NCBI GenBank assembly: GCA_964016885.1
Contig: OZ024748.1
Coordinates: 4,154,001-4,218,000 of the forward strand
DNA from: Eledone cirrhosa
Taxonomy: Eukaryota
DNA: 64,000 bases
Reading direction: 5' to 3'
The position numbers were made by a program, and so were the translations under genes. Shown here piece by piece: positions 469 to 57,012 of the stretch. The notes below the pieces were generated by a model. That model was not told where the DNA came from. It searched no databases and saw only the letters and a program-made list of their open reading frames with translations. The number at the start of each line of letters is the position of its first letter. Position 1 is the stretch's first letter.

Positions 469-668
469 GTAAATATCATGTTTAATATAGAAATGGCTTC
501 TACAGGACTAGAACTGTTTTATTCAAAAGAAATCATGATGATTTCTTTTGAATAAAACAGTTCTAGTCCTGTAGAAGCCATTTCTATATTAAACATGATA
601 TTTACACTCTACTAATATATCGAGTACCTTACTAACTGTGGCTACTCCCGATTTAACCCGGGACTCAA
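469..668 (+). mobile_element. HHR-bearing mini-element, family A, with palindromic 5' end (putative PLE-derived)
   Basis: Perfect inverted repeat 469-605 (68-bp arms, centre G537). The right arm reads TGATGA-TTTC-TTTT-GAAT-AAAA-CAG-ttctagtc-CTG-TA, a decayed hammerhead. The tail to 668 is homologous to 35091-35217 and 56899-56990. Confidence 0.75.
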
Positions 669-2439
669 ACATACATACATACATATATACATACATACAT
701 ATATTTGTACACACACACACACACACACACACACACACACACACACACACACACACACACACACACACACACACATATATATATATATATATATGTGTGT
801 GTGTGTGTGTGCATTATTTATGTATATTTTATATATATATATATTATATATATAAAGAGTCCAGAAAAATATCATATTTCATATCGACACAGAATGTAGA
901 TAAATACAAGAATACAAGATAGAAAAAAAAATATAATAATAATAATATAATAAACAACAAAATATACCCACCCCAATATCAACACTCATCCACACCCCCA
1001 CCACCAACAACAACAATACACACCAATAAACAAAAAATAATGGTTAAATAAAGACAGTAAGATAAAAAACAAACAAACATAAAATCAATAAGAAAGAATA
1101 ACAAATCTTTATACATATAAAAATGATATATACTTAAATGAAGCTGTTTACATGGAGATTGTTGTTATTGATTTTTTACTGTTATTGTTATTTTTGTTAT
1201 TGTTATTGTTGTTGTTATTATTGTTTTGTTGTTGTTGTTGTTGTTGTTGTTGTTGTTGTTGTTATTATTACGATATGTGTCTGGCTTTAGTGCTTAATAA
1301 TATTATTTTTTTCCTGTCCAATCCGTCAGAAAATGTAATAAATCGAACATAACATGCTATATATACTAGAAAAGCAAAGGATATATATGTATATATATAT
1401 AATATTTTTATATAACTTATATATATATATATATGCACACACACCATACATACATGTATATATGCATATATATGTATATATATATGTATATATAAATGTA
1501 TATATATATATATATATATATATATATATATATATATATATATCGTTTCTGACCCTCCCAAAGTATAACAATATATATATATATATATATATATATATAA
1601 TGTGTATTCTTTGGTTTGTTTTTTACACGTATGATGTATTAAAAAATCGTTGACAAAAGGTTATGGGGGAGAAGCAAAACTTCCAGAACTTCTTCATTGT
1701 TTAACGTTTGGCTTTTATATATATATATATATATATATATATATATATATATATATATATATATATATATTGTGTGTGTGTGTGTGTGTGTGTGTGTGTG
1801 TGTGTGTGTGTGCTTAGTTCGAGGTTAATATTCTGAAGTCTTTATTGAGAGTTCAACAGTTCTTCCATTGATCGAACAACTGGAATACTCATAGTCGAAA
1901 CTACCAGTCCATTGGTGTGTGTGTCTGAGTGTGTGTGTGTGTGTGTGCATGTGTGTGTGTGTGTGTGTGTGTGTGAGTGAGTCTGTTTGCGTGTGTGTCT
2001 GTGTCTGTGTGTGTGCTTGTGTGAGTGAGTCTGTGTGTGTGTCTGTATGACTGAATCTGTGTGTTTGTGTGTGTTTGTGTGAGTGAGTCTCTGTGTGTGT
2101 GTTTGTGCGAGTAAGTGTGTGTGTGAGTCTGTGTGAGTCTGTATGTGTTTGTGTGTCTGTGTGTGTGTGTATGTGTGAGTGAGTCTGTGTATATGTGAGT
2201 GAGTGTGTGTGTGTGTATATGTGTGTCTGTGTGTGTGAGTGTGTGTGAGTGTGTGTGTGTACGTGTGTATGTATGAGTCTGGGTGTGTGTGTGTGCAGTA
2301 TTGAGGGCTATAGAGTTCTATATACATACACCTTCGGGGTCGGCGTTACCATTAAGAGTCAGTGGTCGAAGAAAGAAATGTCAAAAATTAGGTTTATCAG
2401 CTTTACATAACTATATATGGAAATTACTTTATTTGACAG

Positions 2440-2670
2440 AATGGGACACCCATCACAGAGCTATCCAAAGTCCCTAAAACCCTAGCTGCCAGCTCTCTGT
2501 GTATGTACACTGTATAGCTATCCTAGATCCCTAAATAGCCAGGTGACGGACATGTATGTACACACATTATAGAGCTAGCCAAACCTCTAAACAGCCAGCT
2601 GTCAGCTATGTATATATACACACTTTATAAGCTATTCTAAGTCTCTAAACACCCAGCTGTTGGCTCTACA
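2440..2670. repeat. Degenerate ~55-60 bp tandem repeat
   Basis: Recurrent atagagcta..cc..aa..cc.agctg...tgtatgtacac motif, about 4 copies. Confidence 0.5.
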
Positions 2671-3005
2671 TCCGGTTTTCTCTGTTGAAGACATCTGTTT
2701 GGTTGTTTCTGATGCCTGTTTTAGTAGTTTCACTGTAAGTTGTATGGACGTAGGTCTGATGAAATATTTTAAGAGGTTTGCCTCACAATCACGATGATCG
2801 ATATCACACACCGGACGTCTTGAGTTCATAGCTGTTACCATAGTTTCAGATCGATACTACATACCTGGCATCTTGGCCGTAGGACTTTTACTATAACTTC
2901 CGATCAATACCTCGTAACTAACATTTTAATCACAGGGCCTTTTACCATAACTTTGAATTTATACCTTAAGCTTGGCATTTTAGCCACATAGATTTTACCA
3001 TAACC

Positions 3006-3185
3006 TTGTGAGGCCCACCAGACCAGATAGACTGTACCATAGCATTGTAAGGCCTACCAGACCAGACCATAGCCGTATGAGGCTCACCAGACCAGATAGA
3101 CTCTGCGATAGCATTGTAAGGCCCACCAGGCCAAATAGACTCTACCATAGCACTGGGTGGCCTGCCAGGTCAGATAGACTTCCCA
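3006..3185. repeat. ~35-39 bp minisatellite
   Basis: Repeated tgtaaggcc.accagaccagatagact.taccatagc units. Confidence 0.75.
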
Positions 3186-3269
3186 GCAGATCACAGACTG
3201 TACCTGTAATTCAATGACTAAACCTTGTCACATGTTGTATTATGTTGATCATTTCATCTGTTGTACATA

Positions 3270-3750
3270 CATAATGTTGTATATAGGATTATATTATCTA
3301 ATATGTTGTTATTGTTTAACTTCGGATGATCCCTGATTAAACGAAGCAAAGATCATAAGCGTTCCTCCAGCTATGACTACCTCACCCCTTTTATTTAGAT
3401 ATATCTAGGACATCGTTATACAATTTATTATTATTGTTGCTGTTTAATATCAGGTCAGCCATGATGAAACAGACCTTTGATCAAAGTCGTTCCAGTTGTG
3501 ACCATCCTGTCTTTTATCTACACCGATTTAGTAAATCTAAAGACATCATTATCCAATGTAGTGTCATTGTTGTTGCTTAATACCAGGTCAACTATGATGA
3601 AACAGACCTTTGATCAAAGTCGTTCTAACTGTGACCATCCTGTCTTTTATTCAGACAGTGAATCTAGGACATCATTATAAACTGTGCTAGTATTGTTTAA
3701 TTCCAGGTCAGCTATGATCAAAGTCATTCCAGCTATGACCATCCCTTTTT
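3270..3750. repeat. Degenerate ~135-bp tandem units of a dispersed repeat family
   Basis: Repeated caggtcagc.atgatgaaacagacctttgatcaaagtcgttccag.tgtgaccatcc. Related sequence at ~42700-42880 and ~57385-57570. Confidence 0.65.
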
Positions 3751-4280
3751 CTATTGAGATATACGTACATACAGACATACATACATAAATAAATAAATAA
3801 ATAAATAAATACAAACATACATACATACGGACATACATACATAGATACAAACATACATACATACAGACATATATACATAGATACACACATACATACATAC
3901 ATAGATACAAACATACATACATACGGACATACATACATAGATACATACATACATATATACATAGATACATAGATACACACATACATAAATAAATAAATAA
4001 ATACAGACATACATAGATTAATACATACATACATACTTAGATAGATAGATAGATAGATACATACATATATTTAACATGTAATAACTATACAGACATCTGC
4101 AGCACGTATAGATATACAGATATATATGTAATATGTATTGTATAACACAAAACACAGATCCACACATGCAATAAGATTCATACCTGTAGAAAGAGAGCGA
4201 GAGAAGATATATATATATATATATATATATATATATATATATATATATATATATATATATATATATATATATAAATATAG

Positions 4281-54995: not shown

Positions 54996-55320
54996 TGAAA
55001 TTGCACACACACACACACACACACACACACACACACACACACACACACACACACACACACACACACACACACACACACACACACATACACACACTCACTC
55101 ACTCACTCACACATACACACATATAGACAAACACATACACACTCACTCATACATACATATTAGTTCATTATTAAGTTGGTATCTGTAACAAATTTACCAA
55201 AATATTCTTATATAAAATTATGTTGGAAGATTTTAATTTAAATAGGAACCTTTAAAAATAGAAATTTGTCTGTCAACCTGTCTGTCTGTCTGTCTGCCAG
55301 TCTGTTTTTTTTTCTTTTAG

Positions 55321-55395
55321 AACCAGAGGCGGTTGGTATCAAGAGGGTTAATGGTTTTGACGTCAACAACGATAATGCAGACGAAATCGGCGACG
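55321..55395 (+). other. Candidate coding exon (unassigned), phase 1-1
   Basis: ttttttttcttttag|(E)PEAVGIKRVNGFDVNNDNADEIGD|gtatgt, 75 nt, strong splice sites. Confidence 0.5.
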
Positions 55396-55881
55396 GTATG
55401 TACACGATGACGATGATTAATCTGCAACTAAACCACCACCACAACAACAACAACAAAACAACAGCAACAACAACAACAACAACAACAACTAACATAACAT
55501 CAACAACAGTAACAACATAAATATACTGTAACAGCCCTGCCCTGTGGCTAAACGCCAATAACCACACTAAAATAGGTGTGTGTGACTTCGAGATTTGTGT
55601 GGGGTAGGTGATGTGGTGTCGTATTAACATACTGTGCGTTTGAAGTTTGTCTTCCTCCACCCCACCCAGTTGTTTTAGATAAATAAAAATTAGTTCCTTT
55701 CTTGTTCTCTCATTCTTAATCTCCTGACATAAGAGAGTTCACAAACCTCGTTTTATTTTGATCTTTGACCATGCTGACATCTACCGGGTGGTGAAGTCGT
55801 TGTTTGTCATTTCTATTCTAGAAGACGATGTATTCAAGATTTTATAAACATACACATACATAATACATACATATACACATA

Positions 55882-56160
55882 CATGATGGCTGCCCCCTCG
55901 TTATCGAGTACGGCCATTGTACGATATACCATTATTAATAATTATTAATTAATTCCATCGCACAATGCCTGAGCTGAAAGATTTTTTTAAAGTGATGAAA
56001 GAAATACATACATACATACATGGTGGCTGCCAACATGTTTTCGAGTACGGCCACTACTTTATATCCATGTAGGAGAACCCCTACCTGAGCGAGTGTGACT
56101 TTTTAGTCCAGCCAGCGACTTGAAAACTCTGGTACAAACACTACACTTGTGACAATTATT
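55882..56160 (-). mobile_element. Two 3' ends of an RTE-like LINE
   Basis: Frame CSVCTRVFKSLAGLKSHTR (C-terminal zinc finger typical of RTE). The terminus tggccgtactcga...ggcagcca.cat followed by (GTAT)n occurs at both 56018 and 55882. Confidence 0.7.
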
Positions 56161-56233
56161 GATACATACATACATACATACATACATACATACATACATA
56201 CATACATACATACATACATACATACATACATAC

Positions 56234-56700
56234 TGGAGAATATTTATGCAGAACTGATGAGAAATCTGCAGATACTCCACCCTGATTACACCTTCAGATT
56301 TATACCTGTGATTATTGAAGCACTGGGATATGTTAGTAACTGCCTCAATACAAATCTTGAAAAGCTGGGCTTCACAGGAACAGAAAGAACACAACTAGTT
56401 AGGAAATTACAAGTACAATCCATTAATAAAATAGTAAAAATGTGTAAAACATTCCAAAAATTTTGCATCTAATAACTGCATATACACATGTACAGATACA
56501 AAGCATATACACATGCACACATACAACTCAAAACATACACATTCACATATACAATAACATCCATATCTACACATGCAGACATACATAATCTACCTAGTTG
56601 ATGTTGTGTAAATTCCAATGAGAGAGTCTTGTGTCTATGTTAGAAACCGACTCTCTCTCCCTATTGGCAAAACTTTGTGAAATTATAAAACCAGAAGAAC
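56234..56700 (+). mobile_element. 3' end of an R4/Dong-like RLE non-LTR retrotransposon
   Basis: [34 protein letters not shown]...RKLQVQSI...KMCKTF resembles the PVIIGALG C-terminus of RLE-type elements, followed by a 3' UTR. Confidence 0.75.
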
Positions 56701-56898
56701 ATACATACACACATACACACACATACATATACAATGAAGAAATATATTATTTTAAAGCTTGATATAGTAGGAAAAGAGTCACTACGTTTCGGACACTAAT
56801 TCTTCATCAGAAGATAGAATGAGAAATATAAGATGAAATAGAAAGATATGTATGTATGTATGTATGTATGTATGTATGTATGTATGTATGTATGTATG

Positions 56899-57012
56899 TA
56901 ACCCCGAGTTAAATCGAGGGTAACCACAGTACAGTAAATAAGTTATTCAATACATTAGTAAAGTAAAAACATCAATTTTAATATAAAAATTCCTCGATTT
57001 AACTCGGGGTTA
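56899..57012. mobile_element. Family A tail bounded by 21-bp inverted repeats
   Basis: taaccccgagttaaatcgagg ... cctcgatttaactcggggtta. The interior is homologous to 35091-35162. Confidence 0.75.

Follow-up and report, generated by a model that had tools for sequence, protein, structure and literature searches.

Penelope-like elements (PLEs) typically insert into microsatellites next to an inverted, truncated copy of themselves and with a tail on one side only, and a Cys linker before the GIY-YIG endonuclease defines Neptune and Nematis among them (PMC8557442). Both the promoter and the start site of PLEs lie within their terminal repeats (PMC2377424, PMC8557442). A purified lizard PLE cuts and extends both target strands, uses uncleaved RNA and begins cDNA synthesis at two sites flanking the tail (PMC11167929); the origin of inverted one-tailed PLE insertions is named as open in two of these accounts (PMC8557442, PMC11167929). 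In Schistosoma, hammerhead motif pairs on opposite strands lie 100-700 bp apart (PMC4209133), the description of retrozymes as PLE derivatives concerns tandem arrays (bioRxiv 10.64898/2026.07.22.740005), and copies of LINE-1 and SVA made from capped templates are marked by an untemplated G (PMC4859970). Here, we describe palindromic, hammerhead-associated insertions in a stretch of the Eledone cirrhosa contig OZ024748.1 (hereafter the window; 64 kb of a 3.0-Gb animal assembly, 35% G+C, microsatellite-rich). By sequence they are PLE 3′ ends, and the geometry of their two arms points to two separately primed cDNAs.

Identity of the Palindromic Insertions

A first-pass annotation of the window had reported palindromic mini-insertions at five sites, and these are real. 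Masked self-comparison of the window returned inverted repeats at 469-605 (99%), 4277-4415 (81%), 5878-5971 (89%) and 29162-29296 (94%); the decayed pair at 54903-54995, which this comparison missed, was recognized on direct reading and in the pairing analysis, and the form recurs in 118 pairs among the retrieved loci. In every insertion one arm stops early and the other runs through a tail of 62-80 nt into microsatellite, as the annotation had described. Insertions are labeled by family as A (469, 54903, 29093, 35084, 56901), B (4281), C (5878, 5631, 32320) and D (29162). The families were first taken to be unrelated, which does not hold: 469 and 54903 belong to one family, the tails of the 4281 and 29162 families are 75% similar, and B, C and D all lead to Neptune-like frames.

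Indeed, long family D copies extend 5′ into a reverse transcriptase (RT) frame, a Cys linker and a GIY-YIG frame; family B joins a Neptune-like RT-linker-endonuclease frame in locus L358, and family C adjoins a Neptune-like endonuclease frame in L235 and L100, the latter also containing RT pieces. The linker between RT and endonuclease is Cys-rich in both D and B. Look-alikes of the D frames in the atlas point to RVT_1/HTH_animal, and to GIY-YIG in 11% of one cluster, and a Pfam scan of three D frames returned no relevant family. Frames near long family A copies belonged to other insertions. Because of the open reading frame (ORF) links, the linker and the typical PLE insertion form, we assign the palindromes to PLE 3′ ends in their known hairpin-plus-tail form rather than to miniature inverted-repeat transposable elements (MITEs). 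Ordinary MITEs with terminal inverted repeats (TIRs), or assembly fold-back artefacts, might also show inverted arms in TA-rich targets, some of them near-identical. Such an origin is nevertheless hardly credible, given the asymmetric tail outside the repeat, the variable junctions and centers and an arm-to-arm divergence of 6%, and continuity with RT and GIY-YIG frames refutes it for B, C and D. The annotation's own preference for a PLE origin over TIR MITEs was in this respect correct. Non-LTR (long terminal repeat) retrozymes were also considered and rejected, as the five palindromes are head-to-head pairs and not head-to-tail hammerhead tandems.

Pairing of a Tail-less and a Tailed Arm

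Pair loci were picked blind to their 5′ side, by tail- or site-1-anchored searches and from 94 tiles of 10 kb. Excluded before counting were duplicates with identical context, a single segmental duplicate in B, and six C pairs whose subfamily lay outside the reference; 30 early loci, which came from a biased query, were kept out of the family D statistics. Of the 118 head-to-head pairs, 113 combine one tail-less arm with a fixed end (site 1) and one arm with a tail (ending at site 2), a pattern seen in 42/43 D, 32/35 C, 23/24 A and 16/16 B pairs; independent choice of start site would yield at most half such mixed pairs. The annotation's proposal that the palindromes are a stereotyped PLE integration product is supported.

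The outer ends are best defined in family D. On a scale in which 0 is the cleaved base of the predicted hammerhead cleavage site and positive positions lie 3′, the D short arm ends at +37/38 in 37/42 pairs and the D tail at about +102/103 (at +102 in 28 of the 38 with a microsatellite start). Targets are microsatellites, mainly (TA)n, and a dinucleotide repeat lies on both sides in 37/42 D pairs, compared with backgrounds of 12% and 16% per side. The D short end directly followed by (TA)n has 1,387 exact occurrences genome-wide, often partnerless within 1.5 kb; exact arm matches in family C number at least 28,922. Site-1 arms also occur singly, reaching more than 1.5 kb into the ORF, and inverted arms of 1.0 and 1.75 kb were found (L141, L145). 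Because the outer ends match the two in vitro RT start sites bounding the tail, we infer that sites 1 and 2 are both priming sites.

Relation between the Two Arms

Comparison of how far each arm reaches shows that the short arm extends at least 8 nt further 5′ than the tail arm in 34/106 pairs (D 16/42, C 5/26, A 4/23, B 9/15), the tail arm further than the short arm in 21/106, and that 51/106 are symmetric within 7 nt. Within the window, it is the short arm that reaches further 5′ in each of the D, B and C palindromes. In 10/42 D pairs the arms overlap only 3′ of the cleavage site or nowhere, and in L145 the inverted arm, at 1.75 kb, far exceeds the tail arm of about 0.3 kb.

These geometries bear on the fold-back origin favored by the annotation, in which synthesis starts at the tail end and halts within the ribozyme or shortly beyond it, and the cDNA then folds back to copy itself. 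Any asymmetry would then stem from a later apex deletion. Such an origin would suit the symmetric pairs and the perfect arms at 469, as well as the subfamily alleles and some rare variants that the arms share (7/1,909 sites versus 0.06% shuffled), and self-priming has been proposed for rotifer PLEs (PMC3846280). As the rule it is distinctly unlikely, however. A self-copying cDNA puts the short arm inside the tail arm, so that simple fold-back is excluded for the longer short arms; the stop at a fixed site 1 joined to microsatellite, and the site-1 arms that occur alone, are left unexplained; both sites are RT start sites in vitro (PMC11167929); and the centers of two families lie far from the ribozyme core (see next section).

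The two arms are closely related in sequence. Arms of D pairs agree at 244/259 subfamily-site comparisons (a few of these sites having been defined with family B tails mixed in), compared with a mean of 78% and a maximum of 87% in shuffles, and the arm-to-arm difference is 6.1% versus 8.7%. As judged by these alleles, both arms derive from one template lineage. An apparent arm-specific allele in family D, with the ribozyme broken in the tail arm and intact in the short arm (10 vs 0 pairs), proved to be a query artefact and is rare in unbiased loci.

Position of the Hairpin Center

Inner ends fall within -65 to -20 in 47/84 D, 46/52 C, 43/46 A and 27/30 B arms, a clustering that is real because the elements are more than 1.5 kb long; single copies end in the same zones as paired arms. 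Plotted against the cleavage site, the inner ends cluster at family-specific positions and the inversion centers are non-random, as the annotation had expected. It had placed the symmetry axis at or near the CUGANGA/stem II region. This holds for the median centers of D (-2 relative to C3 of the core), A (+0.5) and B (-6), but not for family C, whose median is +48 with 0/26 centers within 15 nt of C3, or for a fifth family that ends about 63 nt 5′ of C3 by eye; a sixth ends about 4 nt 5′ of C3 (by eye).

There is no pile-up at the cleavage site itself, with only 4/84 D inner ends within 3 nt of it. This agrees with the earlier suggestion that RT crosses an uncleaved site, and with the use of uncleaved RNA reported in PMC11167929. 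Stalling within the ribozyme, also suggested, is not what we observe: the commonest stops of D, A and B lie at or past the 5′ edge of the motif, and those of C and the fifth family lie well to either side of C3. Thus, the center position is family-specific and mostly beyond the helices first met by RT moving 3′ to 5′. The hairpin center is likely near the ribozyme only because the promoter probably lies there.

Sharp Inner Ends and an Extra G

Pile-ups were counted as exact genome-wide matches up to a given base followed by departure from the reference, and next-base letters were tallied from the listed rows (the first 100 in C and D). In family A, 94 copies leave the reference at -46 (next base G 54, A 30, C 10), compared with 9 one base upstream (G 0), and 84 continue past the pile-up (counted with a shorter pattern). 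In family C, 9,222 copies leave at -42 (G 44, C 48, A 8), compared with 2,682 at the upstream neighbor (G 12) and 6,303 at the downstream one (G 18), while 10,715 continue. In family D, 301 leave at -38 (G 44, T 31, A 25), compared with 112 upstream (G 31). G therefore accounts for 44-57% of next bases at the pile-up versus 0-31% at neighboring bases (Fisher P for the excess: A 8e-4, C 6e-7, D 0.08). We inspected junction G by eye in 60 short loci. In D, 12/13 were not supplied by the partner arm; the G immediately follows (TA)n or a run of A, and in symmetric junctions it is present on both arms. A sharp end with excess G after it is hard to reconcile with a circular template, which the annotation had allowed for.

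Promoter-like words accompany some of these ends. In family A, the long copies from three subfamilies have a TATA box some 30 nt 5′ of the pile-up; in the window's own 35084-35300 copy it lies at about 35250-35243. The family C end is the A of a word that we take to match the arthropod initiator consensus. Contigs from three runs of one sample contained the family and no piece across the palindrome, and are uninformative on expression.

Enzyme processivity or RNA structure, rather than a capped RNA end, could determine where the inner ends fall, with twin priming otherwise correct and synthesis stopping after about 60-90 nt. Median inner ends do lie at similar distances from the cleavage site in four families (-34.5, -39, -38.5 and -48), and many of the G cases could be microhomology to the partner arm. 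This explanation nonetheless appears rather unlikely in view of the single-base sharpness of the pile-ups in A and C, the confinement of the G excess to the pile-up base, the TATA box at about -30 in A, and the fifth family, which by eye ends about 118 nt from the cleavage site.

A Model of Twin Priming

We propose, with moderate confidence, that the insertions arise when one uncleaved RNA undergoes twin target-primed reverse transcription, the cDNAs running to its capped 5′ end at a terminal-repeat promoter. Twin priming as such is better supported than the start-site part and we regard it as quite likely. In this model, the PLE endonuclease would nick both strands of a (TA)n target; the two resulting 3′ ends would prime on the same uncleaved RNA, one at each of sites 1 and 2; the cDNAs would both run off the capped RNA 5′ end, or stop earlier, or much later on long RNAs; and the two cDNA ends would be joined with 0 to a few bases of microhomology. 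The promoter would adjoin the ribozyme motif in most, not all, families. The commonest template may be a short transcript of about 140 nt, begun in the terminal repeat and moved in trans, and most insertions would be tiny and centered at the promoter because of it. A wider form, in which Neptune-type PLEs use coupled twin priming, most of the tens of thousands of copies here stem from short capped transcripts of any terminal repeat, hairpin centers are a fossil map of each family's start site and the repeats are non-autonomous mini-elements, we put forward only tentatively and a little on the side of doubt.

Several observations weigh against this model. D pairs are more symmetric than their end distributions predict (13 vs 7.2, P = 0.012), and the 68-nt arms at 469 are identical within a diverged copy whose tail matches elsewhere in the genome at 94% identity or less. 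True fold-back in some cases, coupling between enzymes or palindrome repair at a later time could account for both, and later apex deletion can mimic asymmetric ends. The D excess of G is not significant against its control. By eye, only about 3/9 independent junction G cases in A and about 4/6 in C are free of a reading as one-base microhomology to the partner arm, and in C the 48/100 cases with C next are partly the subfamily's own base (3/15 inspected). Family B has no sharp end, its inner ends spreading from -43 to -68, and D has no TATA box at -30. Family A has no ORF link, 12 longer copies reaching only about 130-170 nt upstream, and no full-length element was found, the six extended D loci all being truncated.

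A further alternative is that an inverted element is transcribed as one hairpin RNA, with RT jumping across the stem and the units copying themselves, which would produce fixed pairing and near-symmetric, variable junctions. It is highly improbable: the arm-specific allele behind it was the query artefact noted above, both arms often end at the same base, each with G, and lone arms of both kinds are common.

Hammerhead Motifs

A purpose-built descriptor identified complete minimal type I motifs in the window in A (35211) and D (29229), and the B motif was read from sequence. The core boxes and three helices are present in A, B and D according to the descriptor, from which self-cleavage is predicted. 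In family C, helix II is long and the core departs from the canonical form, position 8 being A in long copies. Among the examined loci there are 129 hammerhead motifs, spanning many more families. Minimum-energy folds of isolated motifs did not take the hammerhead fold, and Rfam gave no hammerhead among the best 150 of 907 matches, where the only matches were microsatellite-driven ones to microRNAs.

Both arms had been described as carrying GAAA and stem III pointing outward. The pattern is present, with exceptions: the first G of GAAA is lost in both arms at 469 and in the left arm at 54903, stem III of the right arm at 4281 is one base short, and that of the right arm at 29162 has one mismatch.

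In family A (L194, L195, L208, L213 and window 54940), A-to-G changes recur at core position 6 and differ between arms in both directions, possibly through selection for uncleavable templates. The window also contains a complete hammerhead motif of a further family at 43481-43526, with 7 relatives among the examined loci.

Insertions in the Window

Table 1. Positions of hairpin-tail insertions and related copies in the window
Feature	Position	Strand	Composition
Family A hairpin-tail insertion	469-667	+	Short arm 469-536 (minus), tail arm from 538 (plus), tail 606-667, then microsatellite
Family B hairpin-tail insertion	4277-4480	+	Short arm 4277-about 4355 (minus), tail arm (plus), tail 4412-4480
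Family C relative	5631-5740		Minus-strand 3′ half of ribozyme motif and plus-strand tail piece; direct reading
Family C hairpin-tail insertion	5798-5971	-	Tail 5798-5877, tail arm (minus), short arm (plus)
Family A lone short arm	29093-29147	+	Adjoins family D insertion
Family D hairpin-tail insertion	29162-29361	+	Short arm 29162-29234 (minus), tail arm 29235-29361 (plus), tail 29297-29361, then (TA)n
Family C-like single copy	32320-32392	-	Whole ribozyme-like motif, non-canonical core
Family A single copy with tail	35084-35300	-	Complete hammerhead motif 35211-35173
Decayed family A hairpin-tail insertion	54800-54995	-	Tail arm minus, short arm plus
Family A exception	56901-57012		Two tail-ended pieces head to head, without ribozyme part

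The insertions are listed in Table 1. The 469 insertion is centered within the CUGANGA core. At 4277, the short arm contains the core and reaches -58, and the tail arm starts at -32. The 29162 short arm, which reaches -35, contains a complete minimal type I motif with C3 at 29229; its tail arm starts at -23, and either arm has sequence absent from the other. The family C insertion at 5798-5971 sits between two (TA)n runs, with its tail arm reaching -22 and its short arm -38, and is without any CUGA-type core; in long C copies the non-canonical core lies about 45 nt further 5′. The two arms of the relative at 5631-5740 scarcely overlap. The annotation's end coordinate, 57012, falls on the family A exception.

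Neighboring Elements

Family C pairs are denser around the window (16 in 200 kb, L031-L050) than in other tiles (3 in 740 kb). In family B (L162, L353-L366), a pyrimidine tract and an AG end lie within helix I. Penelope of D. virilis reportedly has an intron end, the splice acceptor, at helix I, and a similar acceptor is suggested for family B; no spliced junction was seen among the family B copies viewed. One family B insertion recurs in near-identical loci (L163-L174, L176, L186), mostly on contig C20 at a spacing of about 110-130 kb, and by this arrangement the loci are a large segmental tandem duplication.

The interval 11719-16273 contains eight perfect tandem units of 474 bp and then an inverted 733-bp copy; every unit has a minimal hammerhead motif. 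The array (11719-15544) resembles non-LTR retrozymes in the head-to-tail order of its hammerheads, and near 15544 there is a head-to-head junction. Dispersed relatives were seen in L053, L054 and L059. More tandem or inverted hammerhead-bearing repeats are found in L100 (8437-9400, 311-bp spacing) and L064. A copy of another PLE family at 16870-17395 has an inverted tail piece, a GIY-YIG fragment (16957-17145), an internal deletion and a hammerhead-like motif with a variant core (17329-17369). The related short, tail-less elements with terminal inverted repeats at 31613-31687 and 41074-41186 resemble true TIR MITEs, and 56235-56470 gives the impression, from its sequence, of the C-terminal endonuclease end of a non-LTR retrotransposon.

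Comparison with Known Systems

If the model is correct, the two in vitro start sites correspond to the two genomic arms, self-priming is replaced as the usual route and base-level predictions of start sites follow; hammerheads would often lie at palindrome centers without the ribozyme causing the fold. For annotation, such hairpins belong under PLE ends and not MITEs. The insertion form, the ribozymes, opposite-strand motif pairs and junction palindromes are already in print. LINE-1 inversions are adjacent rather than duplicated, start at the poly(A) tail and are not known to use a fixed second start site. As in LINE-1 twin priming, both target strands here would prime on one RNA, with untemplated G at cap-reaching ends (PMC4859970). 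We found no published report of near-obligate start-site pairing or capped-start inner ends in a search that covered few subscription papers and neither repeat-database notes nor the supplements of PMC11167929 and PMC8557442.

Among the closest described units are those of EN+ Neptune-clade PLEs (Craig et al. 2021, PMC8557442), which share the inverted 5′-truncated neighbor copy, the one-sided tail, the hammerhead in the terminal repeat, microsatellite targets and the Cys linker before a C-terminal GIY-YIG. However, the tails here measure 62-80 nt compared with 30-40 nt there, and most insertions here are minimal; near-obligate pairing of sites 1 and 2 and the sharp inner end with G are seen here and not in that account, as far as its main description goes. 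Metazoan PLE hammerheads (Cervera and de la Pena 2014, PMC4209133) are likewise type I with a short, often palindromic helix III. Family C differs from them in its long helix II and non-canonical core, and junction mapping does not figure in the opening half of that report.

Poseidon PAc of Anolis (Frangieh et al. 2024, PMC11167929) shares the two RT start sites bounding the tail, an AT-rich target, cutting and extension of both target strands in vitro and an uncleaved RNA template. In contrast to the pairs here, which nearly always contain one arm of each kind, PAc in vitro is described without strand preference of start site, and its ribozyme overlaps the ORF start, whereas here it follows the 3′ untranslated region of the ORF. 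Finally, Adineta vaga Penelope (Arkhipova et al. 2013, PMC3846280) resembles the present families in its head-to-head terminal repeats, junction palindromes and TATA- and initiator-like words. Its authors invoked self-priming, with an antisense template; two primed cDNAs are favored by the arm geometry described here.

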